A stretch of 64,000 nucleotides of DNA, taken from NCBI GenBank assembly GCA_002254365.1, contig NIUT01000134.1, positions 3,252 through 67,251 of the forward strand, in the 5' to 3' direction. The notes under the pieces were generated by a model. That model made no database searches. It was not told where the DNA came from and saw only the letters and a program-made list of their open reading frames with translations. The DNA comes from Nitrospira sp. UW-LDO-01 (GTDB taxonomy: Bacteria > Nitrospirota > Nitrospiria > Nitrospirales > Nitrospiraceae). Shown one piece after another: positions 1 through 53,587 of the stretch. How positions within the stretch are numbered: the stretch's first letter is position 1; each line of letters starts with the position of its first letter. The translations under genes and the position numbers were made by a program.

Positions 1-454
1 TCACGGCATCTTCAAATGCAGCGCGTACTTCTTTCTGCCACTTGATCTTCATTCCCCCGAGCAGGTAGGTCAGTTGACAGGCCGGTCCTTTCCAGAGCCG
101 AGATGGGGCATCAGGCAGGTCTGCATCCCCACCCGTCACGGCCGTGCCTTCCCAGGTCTTGCGTTGTTCGCATTTCACGCGAACGACGACGTCATGAGCC
201 TGCCCGACACTTCGAACGGCTGAGTAACCCACTTCAGTCAACCGTTGAACGACGGTGTCGACGAGGGGGGTGGAATCCGTTGTGCCCTTGTCAGTGAGAG
301 TCAGAACGTCGACGAACACCGTCTGAACCTTCTCCAGTTGAGTCCGTTGTTCAGGTGTAAAGTACTCGCGGTAGGCCAATCCCGCAGGCTCAAGCAGACT
401 CAGCACAACAGCGGATAGAAGTATGGGTACAACAATACGGAATGGATACTGCAT
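1..454 (-). CDS. Exported hypothetical protein, 5' part only (runs off the window start)
   Basis: Manual translation from ATG 454 (GAGGAG just upstream) gives MQYPFRIVVPILLSAVVLSLLEPAGLAYREYFTPEQR..., open to position 1, with a signal-peptide-like N-terminus. Confidence 0.7.
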   Translation of the reverse strand, partial: MQYPFRIVVPILLSAVVLSLLEPAGLAYREYFTPEQRTQLEKVQTVFVDVLTLTDKGTTDSTPLVDTVVQRLTEVGYSAVRSVGQAHDVVVRVKCEQRKTWEGTAVTGGDADLPDAPSRLWKGPACQLTYLLGGMKIKWQKEVRAAFEDAV

Positions 455-599
455 CTCCTCACTCCACTTCCACCACATCAGTTAAGTGGTAAGAGGCGCT
501 CACGGGTGCGATAGGAACTCGTTTCTCGGCTCAGTTTTAGTATACACCCGGTCGTTCATCCGACGGTGTCTGTCGATTCAAATTGTGGAGAAAGTGATA

Positions 600-629
600 T
601 TGACAGCTCCTCATTCCCAATGCTACGTT
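600..629 (+). promoter_or_regulatory. Sigma-70-type promoter of the atp F1 operon
   Basis: TTGACA (600-605), N18, extended -10 TGcTACGTT (621-629), 70 nt before atpH. Confidence 0.55.
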
Positions 630-699
630 CCCGAGCTCTGCTTCGTGACTTTCACGAAACTTTAAGGTCCGTCCAAATAATGTAGGTGAGTCGAGAACG

Positions 700-1239
700 G
701 TGATTAAAACAACAGTTGCGCGACGTTACGCACAGGCACTCTTCGAACTTCTTGACCAATCCAGCATCGAAGTGACGCGAAATGCTCTCGATAGCCTGGG
801 ACAGGCTCTGAAGGAGTCTGACCAGCTTCGACATGTCGTGGCGTCACCGGCGTTTAGTGTTGAGGAAAAGATCTCGGTGCTGCAGGGGCTGGCTGAGCGA
901 TTGGGATGTGTACAGACTGGTCAGGCCTTCCTGGGGCAATTGGTGAAGAAGAGCCGAGTCGGCTTCTTGCCCGAGATTGCTGTGGCGTTTGGAAAACTGG
1001 TTGATCAGGCAAAGGGCACTCAGCCGGTGACGGTGTCGTCGGCGACGGCACTGCCCACTACGGAACAAGAGCGAATTAAAGCGCGGCTACGGGACACACT
1101 CAAACGCGAAGTGGATGTCACGTTTCAGACCGACGCGAGTCATCTTGCCGGGCTGCAGATCCGTATCGGCAGCACGGTGGTCGACAGCACTGTCCAGGGT
1201 CGCCTGCGCGACCTGCACGTGGTGTTGACACGAGAATAA
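700..1239 (+). CDS. atpH: ATP synthase F1 subunit delta
   Basis: [12 protein letters not shown]-terminus, C-terminal [15 protein letters not shown]; directly upstream of atpA. Confidence 0.95.
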
Positions 1240-1249
1240 AGGAGTCGTC

Positions 1250-2770
1250 ATGCAGATCAGGGCCGAAGAAATCAGTGCGATCATCAAGGAAAAGATCAAG
1301 GGGTTCGACAAGCAGGTTGATGTCAAGGAAACGGGCTCAGTCATTCAGGTCGGCGACGGCATTGCCAAGGTCTATGGCTTAGATGGGGCCATGGCCGGAG
1401 AGATGTTGGAGTTCCCTGGCGGACTCTATGGCATCGCGCTGAACCTTGAAGAGGACAATGTCGGCGCCGTGTTGATGGGTGACGACGTCGGAATCAAGGA
1501 AGGCGATCCGGTCAAGCGGACCGGCCGCATCGCGGAAATTCCGGTCGGCGAAGCGCTCGTTGGTCGCGTCGTCAATGCCATCGGTCAGCCGATCGACGGT
1601 AAGGGACCAATCCAGTCCCCGCATCATTCCCGAATCGAAGTGGTGGCTCCTGGTGTGAATACCCGTCAATCCGTCCACGAACCGCTGCAGACCGGTATCA
1701 AGGCAATCGATGCCATGATTCCAATCGGTCGTGGTCAGCGCGAGCTGATCATCGGCGATCGCCAGACCGGCAAGACGGCTATTGCGGTGGATACGATCAT
1801 TAATCAAAAGGGTCTGGGCGTCTTCTGTATTTACGTGGCCGTCGGTCAGAAGCGCTCGACGGTTGCCCGTGTGGTGAAGACACTCGAGGAAAACCATGCG
1901 ATGGAGTACAGCATGGTCGTATCGGCAAGCGCCAGCGACCCGGCCCCCATGCAGTTTCTAGCACCTTTCGCCGGTGCGGCCATCGGAGAATATTTCCGCG
2001 ATAACGGCAAGCATGCGTTGATCGTCTACGACGATTTATCGAAGCACGCCGTGGCCTATCGTCAGCTCTCGCTCTTGCTTCGTCGGCCACCGGGACGCGA
2101 AGCCTATCCGGGCGATGTGTTCTATCTGCACTCGCGCTTGCTGGAGCGGGCAGCCAAGCTCAGCGAAAAACTCGGAGGGGGAAGCCTCACAGCTCTGCCC
2201 ATCATTGAAACGCAAGCGGGTGACGTGTCGGCCTATATTCCAACGAACGTCATCTCGATCACGGACGGGCAGATCTATCTCGGTAGCGATCTATTCTATT
2301 CGGGTATTCGTCCGGCTATTAACGTCGGATTGTCAGTCTCCCGCGTCGGTGGATCCGCTCAGATTAAGACGATGAAACAGGTGGCCGGTACGCTCCGGTT
2401 GGACCTCGCCCAGTATCGTGAAATGGCGGCCTTTGCCCAGTTCGGTAGCGAGCTCGACAAGGCAACCCAGCTCCAGTTGGCACGTGGCGTGCGCATGGTG
2501 GAGTTGCTCAAACAGGGACAGTATAAGCCGATGCCGGTAGCGGATCAGGTGCTCTCCATCTACGCGGGTACGCAGGGATTCCTCGATGACGTGGCGGTGG
2601 ACAAGGTTCAGCAGTTTGAGGCGGACCTTCTGCACTATATTCAACAGAATCATCCGGATCTGAAGAAGGAAGTGACGACGATCGGCAAGATCGACGACAA
2701 GGTCGGTGGCCGGTTGAAAGAGATTATCTCGACCTTCAAGCAAAAGATGGGATACGGAGCAAAAGCCTAA
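1250..2770 (+). CDS. atpA: ATP synthase F1 subunit alpha
   Basis: GDRQTGKT Walker [27 protein letters not shown]. Confidence 0.99.
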
Positions 2771-2778
2771 GCACCGGA

Positions 2779-2863
2779 TTGAGTTTTGAGCAGTCAGGCA
2801 TGAGAGACGGGCGGCAGGGAGCCGGGTTGTCGTCTCAGCCCTCAGCACTCGGTCCACAGCCCT
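2779..2863. repeat. Heptamer-built imperfect intergenic palindrome
   Basis: Left TTGAGTT-TTGAGCA; right CTCAGCC-CTCAGCA-CTCGGTC-CACAGCC (period 7). Confidence 0.5.
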
Positions 2864-2873
2864 AAAGAATACG

Positions 2874-3752
2874 ATGCCAAGTCTTCAATCACTACGCCGC
2901 AAGATTTCAGCCTTTAAGAATACGCAGAAAATTACCAAAGCCATGAAGATGGTGGCCGCGGCCAAGCTCAAGCGGTCCCAGGACCGCATCCTGGCCGCGC
3001 GCCCTTATGCGCATAAAATGCGCGGAGTGTTGAGTAACCTGAGCCAGCGCGTGAACCGCTCTTCTCATCCCCTTCTGCAGAAGCGTGAGGGGAAGAAGGT
3101 CGAAGTGCTCGTGGTGACGAGCGACCGAGGACTCTGTGGTGGCTTCAACGGCAATATCGCCCGCAAGAGTTCTGAATTCGTTCGGCAGTGTGAAGCCCGA
3201 GGGCTCCAAGTGAATCTGAGCATAATCGGTCGCAAGGGACGGGATTACTTTCGTCGCCGTGCGTGGCCGATTCGACAAGAATGGACCGGTGTCTTCGATA
3301 AGTTAAGCTTCGAGCATGCCATCGATATCGGTGGCGACCTCACGGATAATTTTGTCAAAGGCACATTCGACGAACTCTATGTCGTCTACAATGAATTCAA
3401 GTCGGCTATTCAGCAGCGGGTCATTGTCGAAAAGCTCTTCCCGATCGATGCTCAAGAGGAGTTTAGTGCAGCTTCCAGTGAAGGTCTCTTGAGTGGGAGT
3501 TATCTCTACGAACCGGAAGAGGCGGAGCTGTTGGCGGCCTTGATCCCGAAACATTTTCAGATCCAGGCCTATCGGATTTTGTTGGAGTCTGCTGCAGCCG
3601 AGCATGGGGCCCGCATGGCCGCGATGGACGGCGCCACGCGTAACGCCGGCCAGCTCATCAAGAAAGTGACGCTGTATTACAACAAGACCAGGCAGGCGGC
3701 GATTACGAAAGAGTTGATGGATATCGTCGGCGGTGCCGAAGCGTTGAAATAA
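2874..3752 (+). CDS. atpG: ATP synthase F1 subunit gamma
   Basis: KITKAMKMVAAAK, SDRGLCGGFN, YNKTRQAAITKELMDIVGGAEAL. Confidence 0.99.
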   Translation: MPSLQSLRRKISAFKNTQKITKAMKMVAAAKLKRSQDRILAARPYAHKMRGVLSNLSQRVNRSSHPLLQKREGKKVEVLVVTSDRGLCGGFNGNIARKSSEFVRQCEARGLQVNLSIIGRKGRDYFRRRAWPIRQEWTGVFDKLSFEHAIDIGGDLTDNFVKGTFDELYVVYNEFKSAIQQRVIVEKLFPIDAQEEFSAASSEGLLSGSYLYEPEEAELLAALIPKHFQIQAYRILLESAAAEHGARMAAMDGATRNAGQLIKKVTLYYNKTRQAAITKELMDIVGGAEALK

Positions 3753-3759
3753 GTAGGTT

Positions 3760-5286
<1,527 letters not shown>

Positions 5287-5288
5287 AT

Positions 5289-5385
5289 AGGCGGCTGAAC
5301 CGAGCGCCCTCCGTGCTCGCGCAACGCGCGGTCTCGGAAGGCCCTCGTTGCATGCGCGCGGTTGAGGACACATCGGTTCCCGCCT
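5289..5385. repeat. REP/MITE-like palindromic insertion between atpD and atpC
   Basis: Ends AGGCGGCTGAACCGA ... TCGGTTCCCGCCT are imperfect inverted repeats; internal GCGCG-rich stems. Confidence 0.5.
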
Positions 5386-5410
5386 TAGGGTGGGATGAAG
5401 GAAGAGCGAG

Positions 5411-5833
5411 ATGCCAGGGAAGTTTTTATTAGAGGTTGTGACACCGGAAAAACTCCTCTTGAGTCAGCAGGTCGATGAAGTCATTGCACCTGGCTCAGAG
5501 GGTGAATTCGGGGTGTTGGTAGGGCATTGTCATTTTCTGTCGACCCTCCGGATCGGCGAACTCCGTTATCGGATCGATCAAGAGACCCATTCGATGGCGG
5601 TACTCTGGGGGTTTGCAGAGGTCACTCCGACTAAAGTCACGATCATGGCTGAGGTTGCTGAAAAAGCGGAAGATATCGATGTGGAGCGCGCAACCGCCAA
5701 GGTGGCTGAAGCTGAACGGCGACTTCAGGCCGGTGGCTTGCCGTCTGAAGTCAAAGAGGCCCAGGTGAGTCTGGAAAAAGCTCGCCTCCGTAAAAAAATT
5801 GCCGAGCGCGCTAAGAAACCAAGCCACGCCTAA
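5411..5833 (+). CDS. atpC: ATP synthase F1 subunit epsilon
   Basis: LEVVTPEK, GSEGEFGVLVGH, GFAEV, C-terminal helical hairpin. Confidence 0.96.
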   Translation: MPGKFLLEVVTPEKLLLSQQVDEVIAPGSEGEFGVLVGHCHFLSTLRIGELRYRIDQETHSMAVLWGFAEVTPTKVTIMAEVAEKAEDIDVERATAKVAEAERRLQAGGLPSEVKEAQVSLEKARLRKKIAERAKKPSHA

Positions 5834-5968
5834 TCTCACGGTTTGTCCCCGCCCCTTCTTCTACACCCTTTTCCTGCAGTCGGACCATGGTTCAGTGCGA
5901 CTTTTCGTCCTATCCCTGAACGCTGCTCCGGTCAATTGCCAGTCGCATTCGATGAGCTAGCAGGGGAT

Positions 5969-6973
5969 ATGATCACGGAATTTCTCATCACAGCCGGAGA
6001 GCAGCCTAAGCGGTTGGATATCTTTCTCGTCGGTCGAGAGCGAGATGCCTCCCGATCTTCGTTGCAGCGGTTGATTGAATTGGGCCGTATCCGAGTCAAT
6101 GACCAGGTAGTGAAACCCAGCCACAAAATTAAACCAGGCGACCGGATCACGATGGATGTTCCGAAGCCGGAACCGCTCTCCATGAAAGGAGAAGCGATCC
6201 CGCTCGAGGTCTTGTTTGAGGATGATGCTCTGCTGGTCTTAGATAAGCCACCCGGTATCGTGGTCCATCCGGCGCCGGGTAATTGGAGCGGGACGCTGGT
6301 GAACGCACTGTTGCATCACTTCCAAACTTCCGGCGGGACTATTTCAACAATCGGTGGGAAGGAACGTCCTGGGCTGGTTCATCGTTTGGATAAGGAAACC
6401 TCCGGTGTCATGGTGATTACAAAGACCGATACCGCGCATCGGGCTCTTGCTGCCCAGTTCAAACTCCACACGATCACCAGAGTCTATGAAGCACTGGTCT
6501 GGGGAGTACCCAAAAAGGGAAGAGGGCTGATTGATCTCGCCATTGGGCGAGATAGTAAAGACCGAAAGAAGTTCTCCCCAAGAACGACGAGTCCCAAGGA
6601 GTCTGTGACCGAATATGTGGTGACCCGACGGTATGGTAAAGTAGCCGCACATGTCTTGCTCTATCCGCAAACCGGACGGACGCACCAGTTGCGGGTGCAT
6701 CTCACTTCATTGGGCCATCCCATTCTGGGCGATCGCACCTATGGCGGCAACAAAGTGATGGCTCTTGGGGACATCGAGATCCCACGTGTGATGCTTCATG
6801 CTAGGACGTTAGGTTTTACGCATCCAACGTCAGCCGCGAGAGAGGAATTCATGAGGCCGTTCCCTGCGGATATGGAGCGCGTCATTCATGCACTCGAACA
6901 CCTGAATGCCACGGGGGATCGGGTGCCCATTAGTACAACGACGATAGGAACAGCCGAGGAGGAGCGATGTTGA
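5969..6973 (+). CDS. rluD: RluA-family 23S rRNA pseudouridine synthase (RluD-like, S4 domain)
   Basis: RLDIFL S4 domain, VHRLDKETSG catalytic motif, TGRTHQLRVH; start moved to ATG 5969. Confidence 0.88.
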   Translation: MITEFLITAGEQPKRLDIFLVGRERDASRSSLQRLIELGRIRVNDQVVKPSHKIKPGDRITMDVPKPEPLSMKGEAIPLEVLFEDDALLVLDKPPGIVVHPAPGNWSGTLVNALLHHFQTSGGTISTIGGKERPGLVHRLDKETSGVMVITKTDTAHRALAAQFKLHTITRVYEALVWGVPKKGRGLIDLAIGRDSKDRKKFSPRTTSPKESVTEYVVTRRYGKVAAHVLLYPQTGRTHQLRVHLTSLGHPILGDRTYGGNKVMALGDIEIPRVMLHARTLGFTHPTSAAREEFMRPFPADMERVIHALEHLNATGDRVPISTTTIGTAEEERC

Positions 6974-49507: not shown

Positions 49508-49942
49508 TCACGAATTGCGAGGCGTTCCATCTTCGAAATGGAGTGAATGCAGACCATCCGGGCTAAGTGTTTCAAGAATTAGCCGTGGGCGATTACCGCG
49601 TAATGTATCGCAAATGCGGTTGTGAAGTTCGTCGAAGGTCATGCTCGCGTACTGCTTTCCGTCAAGCGTCAGAAGTGGATTCGAATACTCTTGAGGATGT
49701 CGCACAGTTCCCTTCTCCGTCTCCGCGGTGATGATCACGACAGCTCGCATGAATTCGGCATCACCATCCTCATCTGTGGCGAGGGCGGGAGGGAGGAACT
49801 CGGCATAGGGATCTCCGTCCTCGTAACCGAGTCCAGGCGTCGAGGAGCCGATATGCGCCGTCACCTCAATCCATTCGCATCCGGCGTGGACGTCTCCATA
49901 CCTCGGGAACTTCAGACGCCAGAGTGTTGCGTAGATGCTCAT
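49508..49942 (-). CDS. Hypothetical protein (cassette-like)
   Basis: 144-aa ORF starting 14 nt after an attC-like site. Confidence 0.7.
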   Translation of the reverse strand: MSIYATLWRLKFPRYGDVHAGCEWIEVTAHIGSSTPGLGYEDGDPYAEFLPPALATDEDGDAEFMRAVVIITAETEKGTVRHPQEYSNPLLTLDGKQYASMTFDELHNRICDTLRGNRPRLILETLSPDGLHSLHFEDGTPRNS

Positions 49943-49956
49943 AGTGGTTTAGGAGT

Positions 49957-50059
49957 GTCTAAGCGGCCGCTCTAGCCGCAGTGGCTAGCAAGATCCTTGA
50001 ATGTAATCCCGTCTTGAACCTTCCTCGATGATGCCACCAGCTCTAGCGGTTAGTTGGGC
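49957..50059 (-). mobile_element. Degenerate attC-like site
   Basis: Minus strand: GCCCAAC (RYYYAAC match) at the HEPN gene's stop, imperfect stem CCGCTAGAGC...GCTAGAGCGG, end CTTAGAC (GTTRRRY with G>C); 103 bp. Confidence 0.5.
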
Positions 50060-51105
50060 AGGTGTAGCCCCGCTACCTTTGGTGAAATCGTTTTCAGCTT
50101 GTCTCGGAGATCTTTGCATCGTTCAAGTAATTTGGTCTCGCTCATGCCAAGCCGGTGCTTGTCACGAAGCATTTCCAAAAGGTATTTGGCCGACTCATAG
50201 ATTCCTAGGATGCTGTACTCATCTTGTTGAATAAAGGAAATGTCATCCCAATTATCAAGGGTGTCCATGGAAATTTCCTCAAGGGGGATAAATTGCATTC
50301 CGATCAGGAACGAATAGAAGGCCGTCGGGTTCTTGCCAAGTTCCATAATCAATTGACTGTTTGATACAACGTTGGGGGGATCATAACTGAGATCATCTGC
50401 CAAGAACTTTAAGAGCCATTCCCTTGCTTTTTCGTCTGTAAGATTTTTATTGATGAGATCGTGAAACGACCGCAGGTCGGCTCCAAAGGTCGTGATACTA
50501 AAATCAGCGAGCTCTTTAAGCCGACGGATTGTACTTGGGTACACCATTTTAGGTGCGACTTTTTCCATCACCGCATTAATCGCATTCTCGAATTGATCAA
50601 GCTCTCGTTCCAGTTCTCTACGCATTTCATCGAGAGAGTGCACCTGTGTGAGATCAGCTTGCTTCCACGCGCGAGGAAGCATTGCATGGCCATCAATTTC
50701 AAGGAGCTCTTTAAGGAGCTTCGCTGCCAGAGTGCCATATCCACGAACATGCTCCTCGGGAATTGTGATCCCATTGCCTTCGTGATAAAGACGATTTCTA
50801 ACATTGTGATAGAAGCGGAGGTGATGCAATTCATTATCGGGAATTCTCCCAGGTGCAGCAGCTTCGATTCCTTTTGTCAGATCGTGAAACTTTCCATTGA
50901 CATATTGCTTTAGATCCAAATATCCCTTCGCTGACCCGGAAATCTTAACCGGGAGCCCAAGAAACGTTCTAAGCGTGGTTTCCACGCAGACATCCATTAA
51001 AAGGAAGGAAATGCGACGACCTGCCTCATCGGGGCTAGCGTAGGCGGTTATTGCAAACTGGAGCAGTTCCCGTGGACCCCGTTGCCAGGGATGGATATCT
51101 ATCAT
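50050..51105 (-). CDS. HEPN-like domain protein, unknown C-terminal domain
   Basis: N-terminal helical region with Rx4H motif (RNRLYH) after an acidic DVCVE segment; visibly more AT-rich than core genes. Confidence 0.65.
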   Translation of the reverse strand: MIDIHPWQRGPRELLQFAITAYASPDEAGRRISFLLMDVCVETTLRTFLGLPVKISGSAKGYLDLKQYVNGKFHDLTKGIEAAAPGRIPDNELHHLRFYHNVRNRLYHEGNGITIPEEHVRGYGTLAAKLLKELLEIDGHAMLPRAWKQADLTQVHSLDEMRRELERELDQFENAINAVMEKVAPKMVYPSTIRRLKELADFSITTFGADLRSFHDLINKNLTDEKAREWLLKFLADDLSYDPPNVVSNSQLIMELGKNPTAFYSFLIGMQFIPLEEISMDTLDNWDDISFIQQDEYSILGIYESAKYLLEMLRDKHRLGMSETKLLERCKDLRDKLKTISPKVAGLHLPN

Positions 51106-51194
51106 CTGATGCCTCTGCCTAAAGGCTGGAGCTAATAGCACGGCGCGTTACTTCAGCAGTACGAATAGGGGTCAGAGTACAATTGCAGGATGAA

Positions 51195-51344
51195 TCAGGC
51201 AAGAACGACGTTCGATTTGCCTTCAACCTTTGTTCGTTTTCCTCCGCCGGCTTTGATCTACCGTACGTCATCCAGGACTTCTTGTCAGACATCGCGCTTT
51301 GCCTCGAAGTCGGCGAGCGCTTTACCGGTCAGTTTCGTACTCAT
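51195..51344 (-). pseudogene. Truncated HigA/XRE-type antitoxin pseudogene
   Basis: MSTKLTGKALADFEAKRDV*QEVLDDVR*IKAGGGKRTKVEGKSNVVLA*: two in-frame stops, HTH part missing; family recognised from memory. Confidence 0.6.
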
Positions 51345-51412
51345 TTCGAAATGTCTCCGACGGTTGGAGTGCTCATGGCGCAGGGGGCGGCACATCCTTA
51401 CCGCACGAAGAT

Positions 51413-51760
51413 CTATGCGGCATGGAGAAGGAACTCGACTTTCACTGAGTCGAATGGGAAAATCACTCGGCCATCCTTCCCACGATCGAGCACGCCTGCG
51501 TTCAACAGAGCTGTCACATCTGTGTGCACGGCCTTCACATCGCGACCCACACGGCGCGCCGCTTCGCGGATCGACAGAGGGCCGGCTCCACACATGGTCT
51601 TGAGTAATTGCCAGCGCTTCGCGGTCAACACTTTCCAGAGCAGTTCCGGTGTGGCAAAGGTGATGCGTGCGGACTTCTCTCCTTTCCCGGTTTTCCACAC
51701 ATGGGTAAAATCAGCCATTGCTTCCTTGGGGGAGCGAACATCAAGCACGACGGTCTTCAT
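51413..51760 (-). CDS. HVO_A0114-family wHTH protein, putative antitoxin
   Basis: ITFATPELLWKVLTAKRW, SIREAARRVGRDVKAVHTDVTALLNAG; GAGGTG RBS. Confidence 0.8.
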   Translation of the reverse strand: MKTVVLDVRSPKEAMADFTHVWKTGKGEKSARITFATPELLWKVLTAKRWQLLKTMCGAGPLSIREAARRVGRDVKAVHTDVTALLNAGVLDRGKDGRVIFPFDSVKVEFLLHAA

Positions 51761-51808
51761 GGTTTCACCTCAGCACCATGTAACTCTGGCCAGCCACTTC
51801 ACATAGAC

Positions 51809-51872
51809 GCTTAACGCCGAATATCAGTGGCGTGTTGCTTCCGATGTGTTCGGCTGAAGCGTTTCATTTGGT
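51809..51872 (-). mobile_element. Degenerate attC-like site
   Basis: Minus strand ACCAAATGAAACGCTTCAGCCGAAC...CACTGATATTCGGC-GTTAAGC: perfect GTTRRRY end, 64 bp, overlaps the DUF2442 3' end. Confidence 0.55.
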
Positions 51873-52114
51873 GAGGCCTCAACTGGGACGAGTTCAGCAA
51901 CGAATGTTTCCGGAGCAATGTCCTGTTCGTGAGGCCACGTTACAGTGCCCAGTACGATACCCACCTGTCTGAAATAGTCCTGGTTGCGCAATTCACGAAA
52001 CACGCCGTGGTCGAGATATGGTTTGACATTGAAGATGCCCCGTCGACCATCGGCGATTTCCACGTAGAGACGGTAATCTGAAAGCGGTGTGACGGTTTTT
52101 ACATCCCAGTACAT
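51824..52114 (-). CDS. DUF2442 domain protein (antitoxin-type)
   Basis: VTPLSDYRLYVEIADGRRG, VFRELR...F.QV, TVTWPHEQDIAPE. Confidence 0.85.
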   Translation of the reverse strand: MYWDVKTVTPLSDYRLYVEIADGRRGIFNVKPYLDHGVFRELRNQDYFRQVGIVLGTVTWPHEQDIAPETFVAELVPVEASPNETLQPNTSEATRH

Positions 52115-52116
52115 GG

Positions 52117-52362
52117 CTACAACCTTACAGAGGGTCGATTTACTGAGGGAAGTTGGGGACTTAGCCGGCTGCTGGCAAATTTCAGACAAGCAGAAACATC
52201 TTCCGCTTCAAGGTCTGGCAATTCTACAAGAACTTGTTGCTGTGAGAGCCCTGCGGCTAATAAATCCAGGACATCCACGACCCGAATCCGCATCCCACGA
52301 ATACAGGGCCGTCCTCCACATTGGCATGAGTTGACCGTAATTCGTTCAACGAGTTCAGCCAT
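52117..52362 (-). CDS. DUF433 domain protein (antitoxin-type)
   Basis: RITVN..QCGGRPCIRGMRIRVVDVLDLLAAG...PDLEAEDV. Confidence 0.85.
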   Translation of the reverse strand: MAELVERITVNSCQCGGRPCIRGMRIRVVDVLDLLAAGLSQQQVLVELPDLEAEDVSACLKFASSRLSPQLPSVNRPSVRL

Positions 52363-52528
52363 GATAAGACTCTCTGGATGGGCAACCCTTCTGAATCCTG
52401 TGTGCTTCACGACGGAGCCTACTGAAACGCCTCATTACTATCAAGCAATGCGCAATGTACGGTGGAATACACAGAGCCTTGGTGGAACGTAGGCCTTCCA
52501 TCCCCTGCTTGACTCCCATCCGACCCCT

Positions 52529-53587
52529 ATGATTAGGTCTGCCGCCACCATGATAGTTCTCACCCACTTTCGATTGTCCCTCATCGGTCTCCTCCTCATT
52601 GGGCTAAGTCTGCTCGGCTGCCAGAAGGAGAGCGAGTCCGTTGTCTCGATCGCCTTGCATCCCAAGAATGCCGACATCCTCTATGTCGCCACAAACGATG
52701 CGGTCTACAAATCGCGCGATGGGGGAGGGACCTGGGAACGTTTCCCAAGTTTCAGTGCGCGGCGGGTGACGACGCTCGCGATTGATCCGCTTCTGCCGGC
52801 GGCGATCTATGCCGGTACGATGGGGGATGCGGTCTACAAGAGTCCGGATGGGGGGCAACATTGGCTGCCGCACAATGTCGGACTGAAAGAGCACGTCTCA
52901 TTTATCAATCAGTTCGTGTTTCACCCGGCGGCCAGCGAACAGGTTTATGCGGCAACCACAGTCGGCGCCTTTTATTCAAAAGACGCGGGTCGCGAGTGGG
53001 TCGAGCGGATGAACGGGATGAAGGAAGTCCACATTGTGACGTCGATCGCCATCAATCCCAAGGAGCCGGCGGTGTTGTATGGTGGGACAACCGGCGGGGT
53101 CTATCGGTCAGATGATGGGGCGGCGACCTGGAAAAAGGTCAACAATGGGCTGATCCCCGAGACGGAACTGATGGCGGCCATGGCCCTTGGGGTCAATGCC
53201 ATTGAGATCGATCGGACGAATCCCGATATCGTCTATGCCGGCACGACGAAAGGATTGTTTCGCACGATGAACAAAGGCGAACAGTGGGAGCGGATTGGTC
53301 AATCCATCTCCGATCCCTTCATCAGCAGCTTGGTCCTTCATCCGAAGGAGTCGTCCCAGCTGTATATCGGTGGCCCAGCCGGGATTTGGAAAACGGTAGA
53401 TGGAGGAAAGACTTGGCAGGTGACGAACCGAGGGCTTGCGACGTTGAACATTCGCGCCCTGGCTATGGATCCAAAAAACGCTCAAGTGCTCTACGCCGGC
53501 ACAAACGGCAGTGGCCTCTACCGTTCTACCGATGCCGGCGCAACCTGGGTGCCGGTGCTGTTGAAGGCAGCACCGGCCCAGTCGTAA
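52529..53587 (+). CDS. BNR/Asp-box repeat beta-propeller lipoprotein
   Basis: Lipobox LLGC; repeated KSxDGGxxW motifs. Confidence 0.88.
   Translation: MIRSAATMIVLTHFRLSLIGLLLIGLSLLGCQKESESVVSIALHPKNADILYVATNDAVYKSRDGGGTWERFPSFSARRVTTLAIDPLLPAAIYAGTMGDAVYKSPDGGQHWLPHNVGLKEHVSFINQFVFHPAASEQVYAATTVGAFYSKDAGREWVERMNGMKEVHIVTSIAINPKEPAVLYGGTTGGVYRSDDGAATWKKVNNGLIPETELMAAMALGVNAIEIDRTNPDIVYAGTTKGLFRTMNKGEQWERIGQSISDPFISSLVLHPKESSQLYIGGPAGIWKTVDGGKTWQVTNRGLATLNIRALAMDPKNAQVLYAGTNGSGLYRSTDAGATWVPVLLKAAPAQS

Follow-up and report, generated by a model that had tools for sequence, protein, structure and literature searches.

The stretch of DNA analysed here, a 64,000-nucleotide piece of the Nitrospira sp. 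UW-LDO-01 genome (contig NIUT01000134.1; hereafter the window), carries four elements of antitoxin families arranged head to tail on the minus strand, as determined from its open reading frames (ORFs), Pfam searches and tblastn. A preliminary description of the locus had named these elements as a DUF433 gene, a DUF2442 gene, a winged-helix gene of the HVO_A0114 type and a HigA-like pseudogene, and had noted that the toxin partner of each was missing. All four family assignments and the usual toxin partners were rightly named, and the first three passed the Pfam check: the DUF433 protein scored 74.7 bits against PF04255 (cut-off 23.6) with all 56 profile positions matched, the DUF2442 protein, which is DhiA-like, 54.4 bits against PF10387 (cut-off 23.9), and the HVO_A0114 protein 101 bits against PF25212 (cut-off 27.6). 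The frames of these three genes are open and that of the fourth is broken, again as described. NCBIfam and PADLOC provided no useful names for the four genes, only weak winged-helix matches for HVO_A0114. The intergenic gaps measure 2, 63 and 68 nt and hold no ORF; therefore, no toxin gene fits between the members of the stack, a point on which the preliminary description was correct. Moreover, tblastn with DUF5615, DUF4160, TumE and HigB queries found no homologue anywhere in the 64-kb window (all E>0.2). Nowhere in the stack do an adjacent toxin and antitoxin share one operon, as they would in a complete type II toxin-antitoxin (TA) module. We consider it quite probable (roughly 0.85) that these 1.2 kb are what remains of four type II TA modules whose toxins were removed by deletion. 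The features are listed in Table 1.

Table 1. Features of the antitoxin stack and its downstream flank, in window coordinates.
Feature	Position	Strand	Description
DUF433 gene	52117..52362	-	81 aa; Pfam PF04255, E=5e-21
DUF2442 gene	51824..52114	-	96 aa, intact; Pfam PF10387, E=1.5e-14
HVO_A0114 winged-helix gene (TumA-type antitoxin), orphan	51413..51760	-	115 aa, intact; Pfam PF25212, E=3e-29
MqsA/HigA2-like XRE antitoxin pseudogene	51195..51344	-	5' 49 codons, two stops, HTH half gone
Deletion junction	52115..52162	-	After DUF433 codon 67; then last ~10 DUF4160 codons
DUF2442-HVO_A0114 spacer	51761..51823	-	~40 nt of DUF2442-module 3' UTR, then ~21 nt of TumE 3' end
Junction motif GCAATTGTACTCTGACCCCTAT	51165..51186	-	At the MqsA-like truncation; appears to be one arm of a palindromic REP-like element
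Low-GC 351-aa gene, probable HEPN-domain protein	50050..51105	-	Occupies the place of the missing 3' part of the MqsA-like gene

The order of events at the DUF433 end of the stack could be read from two Nitrospira loci that occupy the same slot beside a BNR/Sortilin gene, L096 (a JGI locus) and L097 (GCA_041912115.1). In both, the order is DUF433 (74 aa)-DUF5615 (114 aa), a 49-aa relic of an MqsA 5' end, a 151-aa gene with short ORFs, DUF4160 (88 aa, by tblastn)-DUF2442 (96 aa), a 62-nt spacer, HVO_A0114 and an intact MqsA-like gene (124 aa). By blastn, window positions 53548-52163 correspond to L096 2794-4200 and window positions 52141-51203 to L096 6441-7373. From these two collinear blocks, approximately 2.24 kb is missing from the window lineage, lost in a single deletion. 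Gone with it are eight codons at the end of DUF433, the whole of DUF5615, the genes between and all of DUF4160 except about 10 codons, and DUF433 came to lie two nucleotides upstream of DUF2442. The losses of DUF5615 and DUF4160 were thus one event and not two. The stepwise disarming proposed in the preliminary description therefore needs amendment: toxin-bearing relatives and mapped junctions support it directly, but the four toxins were not lost independently, as one deletion took two of them.

Since the DUF433 frame now runs through the DUF4160 relic, both the foreign tail of the protein and its 2-nt spacing to DUF2442 are accounted for. Residues 1-67 are native, whereas residues 68-81, SPQLPSVNRPSVRL, form a foreign 14-residue tail derived from read-through into the former DUF4160 3' end and the DUF2442 leader. 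The close homologues are 74 aa long, match residues 1-68 only (84% coverage) and read NHPILAA in place of the tail, which bears out the earlier suspicion that this tail is non-native and marks a deletion junction. Translated in the frame of the lost toxin, the DUF4160 relic gives ..PNFPQ*IDPL* (asterisks denote stops). A gene for DUF5615, a PIN-like protein that accompanies DUF433 in L096-L102, overlaps and follows it in all five close relatives examined (L096 and L099-L102); the window has no such toxin gene beside DUF433. Residues of the conserved DUF433 motif NPEQCGGRPCIRG are also replaced in the window (P12S and E13C), and a 98%-identical relative (P0121) carries C15G and C20Y in addition.

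DUF4160 is likewise intact, and precedes its antitoxin, in the relatives of the DUF2442 gene: in L103, the closest DUF2442 relative with long context (82% identity), it lies 10 nt upstream, and it is also present in L096 and L097. In the window nothing of it remains directly upstream of DUF2442 save the ~10 terminal codons. The DUF2442 protein itself has a native tail with no deletion scar, because its length of 96 aa is that of the subfamily (many 96-aa homologues align at 99-100% coverage) and its C-terminal 20 residues, which are fast-evolving, are equally variable in toxin-paired loci (dN/dS, the ratio of nonsynonymous to synonymous divergence, 0.5-0.9). The preliminary description had this tail running into an attC-like site. 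That claim did not hold, as the length is native, no pair of core sites or hairpin was found and the spacer consists partly of a TumE 3' end. Three further observations concern this family. The public gene call at L096 6176-6469 (-) is a 97-aa antisense ORF and the true gene there is DUF4160, at 6191-6454 (+) (Pfam E=4.5e-25). A context table that relied on antisense calls of this kind would wrongly count the L096 DUF2442 as an orphan. In L103 (JGI 3300014202), positions 199-6291 hold intact TumE-HVO_A0114 and DUF4160-DUF2442 pairs between a DDE transposase and an OLD-TOPRIM and UvrD-helicase pair, a setting that looks like a defence island with a Gabija-like pair. Comparable runs of DUF2281/DUF2442 genes occur in Chlorobaculum.

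For the HVO_A0114 gene, a search in which each GTDB species was represented by one genome yielded 80 loci from many phyla with proteins 72-94% identical, 77 of which had enough upstream sequence for its partner to be sought. An intact TumE gene (PF20126, ~98 aa) lies directly upstream in 63 of these 77, overlapping the antitoxin start by 17-20 nt, and TumE is also upstream in 15 of the 16 IMG/VR viral loci with an HVO_A0114 homologue. The operon in the window lacks it, except for a 3' relic of about 21 nt (51761-51781, ACATGGTGCTGAGGTGAAACC) that includes the Shine-Dalgarno sequence of the antitoxin. The 110 nt upstream of the HVO_A0114 start were aligned in 25 loci in order to compare such remnants; this alignment, with a comparison to L096, L103 and L110, gave the make-up of the spacer in Table 1. 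The retained TumE 3' end measures ~21 nt in the window, ~18 in N. nitrosa (L011), ~22 in L024, ~40 in L025 and ~50 in L026, and the Shine-Dalgarno sequence and ORF of the antitoxin are kept in every TumE-less Nitrospira locus. Because the retained length differs in each of them, the alignment implies that TumE was deleted independently at least five times within Nitrospira. TumE-less loci also occur beyond the genus (L035, L048, L081, L085 and L095). In the window lineage, the loss of TumE is older than the 2.24-kb deletion, since the DUF2442-HVO_A0114 junction is common to L096 and L097.

What stands in for TumE varies as well: the window has DUF433 and DUF2442 there, N. nitrosa has a HigBA pair with a solo MqsA-like gene, and L026 has no replacement. 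Antitoxin-only runs, which the preliminary description had recommended looking for in other Nitrospirota, therefore recur within Nitrospira at the slot beside the BNR gene, with TumE replaced differently in each lineage. Complete paralogous TumE-HVO_A0114 pairs exist in the genus too (L102, and L082 from the same metagenome-assembled genome as the orphan L026). Two observations were made at the relic boundary itself. A metatranscriptome contig (X2, record 12) aligns to window positions 50963-51771 with 32 differences, and its similarity to the window stops precisely where the TumE relic begins, the rest being unrelated; therefore, a second allele of this hot spot coexists in the same sludge community. 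Among near-identical contigs, a single polymorphism recurs (51771/51773 region): at 51773 the gene strand has C>A, which is G>T on the plus strand.

The fourth element, read through its stops, is MSTKLTGKALADFEAKRDV*QEVLDDVR*IKAGGGKRTKVEGKSNVVLA*, and its start is at 51344 rather than 51350. The remnant has no Pfam domain of its own, neither HTH_3 nor MqsA_antitoxin, and no open frame; its read-through translation gave nothing against plasmids at E<=0.01 (only matches of E~4 at E<=10, tblastn) and only noise against the PDB (phmmer). We identified it through intact Nitrospira orthologues of 104-124 aa, to residues 1-47 of which it is 72% identical (tblastn, E=1e-16). Intact relatives such as those in L097 and L011 match MqsA_antitoxin (PF15731) and HTH_3 (PF01381), and with its two stops, TGG>TGA at 51285-51287 and GAG>TAG at 51258-51260, the HigA-like pseudogene of the preliminary description stands. 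The toxin of this gene can be recognized in Betaproteobacteria, where a 105-115-aa protein precedes the MqsA-like gene (L053 and L065) and resembles RelE (PF06296, E 5e-5 and 7e-4, both matches falling short of the gathering score). None was present in the Nitrospira loci examined, apart from a truncated ORF in the Nitrospiraceae locus L024 that is homologous to the N-terminal part of the RelE-like protein.

The truncation of the MqsA-like gene falls at the same nucleotide in the window, L100, L027, L103, L096, L011 and L110. After the break comes a conserved (GCG)ATTTACCACGCAATTGTACTCTGACCCCTATT and then different, unrelated cargo at each locus. Copies of the motif lie at L100 4767-4784, L103 2682-2699 and L022 7564-7581 and in L112-L191, and at least 120 metagenome stretches, drawn from a great variety of habitats, contain its core, AATTGTRCTCTGACCCC. 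Two copies frequently flank TCTAATATTAGA in inverted orientation; the core was not present in IMG/VR. ORFs resembling RAYT (HHVIQRGNNR) adjoin the motif in two loci. Rfam searches of 13 motif loci and a full-text search for the motif returned no identification; from its arrangement, it looks like an element of the REP/REPIN type or a recombination site. It was also observed that MqsA-like 5' segments of ~140 nt occur twice per locus, after each TA module (DUF433-DUF5615, TumE-HVO_A0114, DUF4160-DUF2442), at L096 4602-4751 and 7232-7606, L103 2551-2715 and 3357-3737, and L011 5620-5934 and 6413-6574. These repeated segments may serve as homology for stacking or swapping modules.

The exact HVO_A0114 protein is present in 60 blocks of public assemblies, and ten contigs from different samples share 99-100% identity and the same gene order across 3.2 kb. 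No coding differences were present among these ten contigs in the three intact genes, and dN/dS within the population is thus uninformative. Since the protein of the flanking BNR/Sortilin gene is 97% identical to its counterpart in Candidatus Nitrospira nitrosa (dS 0.22), the source genome is that of a close relative of N. nitrosa. No tRNA genes or Rfam families were found in the window and no integration site of the tRNA type is visible. Positions 50900-52600 hold no sigma-70-like promoter, and their sole terminator-like site, inside the 351-aa gene, is no better than those of shuffled sequences.

Selection on the survivors was assessed by pairwise comparison. The HVO_A0114 genes of the window and L097 are both orphans and share one junction; between them, dN is 0.044 and dS 0.956 (dN/dS 0.046), from 11 nonsynonymous and 47 synonymous differences (binomial p=5e-19 against a 3:1 neutral expectation). 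Mean dN/dS is 0.10 between orphans and 0.093 between toxin-paired copies, and each of the six TumE-less Nitrospira lineages examined (the window, L011, L024, L025, L026 and L097) has kept the 115-aa ORF unbroken. Judged by these comparisons, the orphan HVO_A0114 is under strong purifying selection and is maintained without a toxin in cis. For the other two genes, the metagenome contigs L110 and L111 served as a post-deletion sample; they carry the same fusion allele and junction at 93-97% nucleotide identity, and because the junction is shared with the window, their differences postdate the deletion. DUF433 has accumulated 5 nonsynonymous and 6 synonymous differences since then (dN/dS 0.26), compared to a dN/dS of 0.00-0.03 in ten toxin-paired comparisons (summed, 19 nonsynonymous and 227 synonymous). 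DUF2442 has accumulated 15 and 9, respectively (dN/dS 0.49), or 4 and 2 in the domain alone, for which other pairs have a dN/dS of 0.04-0.15. HVO_A0114 alleles of similarly low divergence, taken from RNA contigs, differ at about 4 nonsynonymous and 23 synonymous sites (Fisher p=0.0013 against DUF433 and DUF2442 pooled). Therefore, the excess is not mere inflation of dN/dS at short divergence. The counts are small and point to relaxed constraint on DUF433 and DUF2442 since the loss of their toxins. The dN/dS check that the preliminary description had proposed for the three intact genes thus divided them, with long-term purifying selection in the orphan state seen for HVO_A0114 only.

Contigs from sludge metatranscriptomes cover positions 51278-52216, from HVO_A0114 through the spacer and DUF2442 into the 3' part of DUF433; both junctions are spanned by single contigs. 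None was found over 52217-52512, which includes the 5' half of DUF433. Word depth over the stack is about one third to one half of that over the neighbouring BNR gene (X1 and X2), contig depth being a poor measure. These contigs hint that the genes of the stack may be co-transcribed.

Taken together, the four elements suggest the following history. Modules of DUF433/DUF5615 (PIN-like), DUF4160/DUF2442 (DhiTA-like), TumE/HVO_A0114 (TumE-TumA) and a RelE-like toxin with an MqsA/HigA2-like antitoxin would have accumulated in a recombination-prone slot beside the BNR/Sortilin gene in Nitrospira. Loss of an antitoxin under a still-active toxin is expected to be lethal, and therefore only losses that begin with the toxin are likely to be seen. 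The deletion of TumE, which left ~21 nt of its 3' end before the antitoxin, is the first step and an old one, its junction being common to L096 and L097. The second is the loss of the RelE-like toxin of the MqsA-like gene, which is missing from all the Nitrospira loci examined (the L024 relic excepted). The ~2.24-kb deletion then joined codon 67 of DUF433 to what was left of DUF4160, its final ~10 codons, and in a fourth step the MqsA-like gene was cut at the REP-like motif and afterwards acquired its two nonsense codons. HVO_A0114 would remain as a functional DNA-binding protein kept by selection, most likely acting in trans as a TumE-neutralising antitoxin or repressor, whether the TumE modules are paralogous or incoming. 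DUF433 and DUF2442 would be recently orphaned genes under relaxed constraint that are on the way to decay and probably still co-transcribed.

Several observations weigh against parts of this reconstruction. The divergence of the island disagrees with that of its flank: against L096, dS is 0.46-0.51 for DUF2442 and 1.44 for BNR, and against N. nitrosa it is 0.50 for HVO_A0114 and 0.22 for BNR. Recombination has therefore moved the modules between Nitrospira species, and the succession given above is the most parsimonious reading rather than a dated phylogeny. L110 lacks HVO_A0114, so that alleles evidently recombine. One Nitrospira metagenome-assembled genome holds both an orphan HVO_A0114 (L026) and a full TumE-HVO_A0114 paralogue (L082), and toxins in trans are possible in the source genome as well, of which only 64 kb is in view. 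The post-deletion substitutions are few, and p for DUF433 taken by itself is 0.014-0.09. The expression evidence consists of low-depth metatranscriptome contigs for which carry-over of DNA is possible and which leave the 5' half of DUF433 uncovered.

The preliminary description had also raised the possibility that the three intact orphans are retained as a bank of antidotes that neutralise toxins arriving on plasmids, phages and mobile elements, in the manner of anti-addiction or of defence against abortive infection. For HVO_A0114 several observations favour this: the orphan has been under purifying selection over a dS of ~1, its toxin was lost with the antitoxin kept at least five times, and TumE-HVO_A0114 modules against which it might act occur across phyla at 72-80% identity and in nearly all the viral loci that bear the antitoxin. 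All three intact proteins match PHROG families, and the notion that orphan antitoxins may serve in anti-addiction is well established (PMC7354431, PMC7192599). However, the raised dN/dS of DUF433 and DUF2442 after toxin loss, the replaced residues of the conserved DUF433 motif, the decay of the fourth member to a pseudogene and the loss of two toxins in a single deletion accident, not gene by gene, do not fit a bank maintained as such, and we regard it as unlikely for the stack as a whole. On these comparisons, an adaptive antidote role seems plausible for HVO_A0114/TumA only.

It is similarly doubtful that HVO_A0114, and perhaps DUF433 and DUF2442, were recruited as transcription factors for host genes unrelated to toxins. 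A DNA-binding winged-helix fold under purifying selection without a toxin in cis would suit such a role, and domestication has been proposed as a fate of orphan antitoxins (PMC2701414, PMC7192599). However, the genes downstream of the orphan HVO_A0114 differ in every lineage (an HEPN-like gene here, YbbD_head in N. nitrosa and the MqsA-like gene in L096), and there is therefore no conserved local target. Furthermore, its constraint equals that of toxin-paired copies, which an unchanged role as antitoxin or auto-repressor fits at least as well.

Purely neutral decay, in which all four elements are non-functional leftovers that have by chance stayed unbroken so far, would agree with the existing pseudogene and the relaxed dN/dS of DUF433 and DUF2442. 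Solo antitoxins are very common in any case: in the large TA families, solo genes exceed 50% of the total (PMC2701414), and the median Klebsiella strain has nine (PMC7192599). This explanation is nevertheless improbable, as a dN/dS of 0.046 over a dS of 0.96 and an ORF kept in six TumE-less lineages are incompatible with neutrality for HVO_A0114 (p=5e-19), and metatranscriptome contigs extend over both HVO_A0114 and DUF2442. Finally, an integron-like array of single-gene cassettes parted by attC sites, suggested by short same-strand genes some 63 nt apart and the GTTAAGC that the preliminary description saw after DUF2442, is scarcely credible, since the DUF2442-HVO_A0114 spacer is homologous to a module untranslated region and the TumE 3' end, and deletions evident from the comparison with L096 account for the junctions. 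A search of both strands for canonical attC sites found no RYYYAAC...GTTRRRY pair at a spacing of 30-130 nt, nor any hairpin spanning the spacers. No integrase was seen among the genes of related loci; the ORFs of the window were scanned in part.

Immediately downstream of the stack, the 351-aa gene has a GC content of 43-47% in surroundings of ~56% and appears foreign to the locus. Its product is cognate to none of the four antitoxins. It matched no Pfam, PADLOC or PHROG family, and a profile search of PDB sequences and Pfam scans of 60 homologues, out of 628 representative ones, gave nothing specific. In these 60, D38, E42, H100, R103, N104 and Y107 are invariant and H108 is present in at least 90%, which yields an RNxxxH motif of the Rx4-6H form characteristic of HEPN proteins. 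The AlphaFold model is all-alpha (pLDDT 93.5), and the only sensible Foldseek match in the PDB, a weak and local one, is the HEPN protein 1wol (probability 0.82, TM 0.60, 136 columns, E=2.2). The model and the conserved residues suggest that it is probably a new HEPN-domain family and possibly an RNase effector. Further downstream, a 144-aa ORF at 49508-49942 (-) without a family match has counterparts of 78-85% identity at the same locus in Nitrospira L020, L024 and L025.

Of the systems that the stack recalls, TumE-TumA has been validated experimentally as a pair of a translation-inhibiting DUF6516/PF20126 toxin, TumE, and a DNA-binding antitoxin (Durairaj et al. 2023, PMC10584680). The window resembles it in its 115-aa PF25212 protein, in the PF20126 gene that overlaps upstream in 63 of 77 related loci and in the ~21-nt relic. 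It differs in having no TumE and in the toxin-first order, with an overlap of 17-20 nt, whereas DUF6516 was reported mostly downstream of its partner (PMC10584680). The TumA proteins tested were gammaproteobacterial (PMC10584680). DhiTA of Dickeya dadantii is a validated, toxin-first pair of a DUF4160 toxin and a DUF2442 antitoxin (PMC8198452). L103 and L096/L097 have the same Pfam pair in the same order, but the window keeps DUF2442 and only ~10 codons of DUF4160, and the likeness drawn here is one of family pair and order. The pairing of DUF433 (COG2442) with PIN is a bioinformatic prediction (Makarova et al. 2009, PMC2701414), and no experimental test of it was found in the cited literature. 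It is matched by the overlapping DUF5615 after DUF433 in L096 and L099-L102, whereas in the window DUF5615 is deleted and the DUF433 C-terminus replaced.

Orphan antitoxins have been described before, for example ccdA of Erwinia chrysanthemi and those of a Klebsiella survey, with decay, anti-addiction and a regulatory role as proposed fates (PMC7354431, PMC7192599). The locus is like these in that its toxin-less genes lie in the same context as the intact pairs of relatives, and unlike them in having four families side by side, junctions defined to the nucleotide and members at different stages of decay. Since orphan antitoxins, toxin-first decay and anti-addiction are already established (PMC2701414, PMC7192599, PMC7354431), we see in it a well-resolved new example and no new kind of system. 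A bolder proposal, which we hold only tentatively and think unlikely to be right in full, is that orphan TumA is a selected 'immunity' gene against TumE-carrying phages, mobile elements or paralogous TumE, and that the BNR slot captures TA modules and converts them into antidotes, with the REP-like element and the repeated MqsA 5' segments as recombination handles.

Although antitoxins without a partner are common, where they come from and what becomes of them has usually been guessed. The locus offers a compact natural series for the decay of TA modules, with one gene maintained for a long time, two newly orphaned and one dead. At least five losses of TumE, with TumA still strongly constrained, in a single genus provide a testable case for anti-addiction or domestication, and in organisms of practical relevance, the nitrifiers of wastewater and drinking-water treatment.

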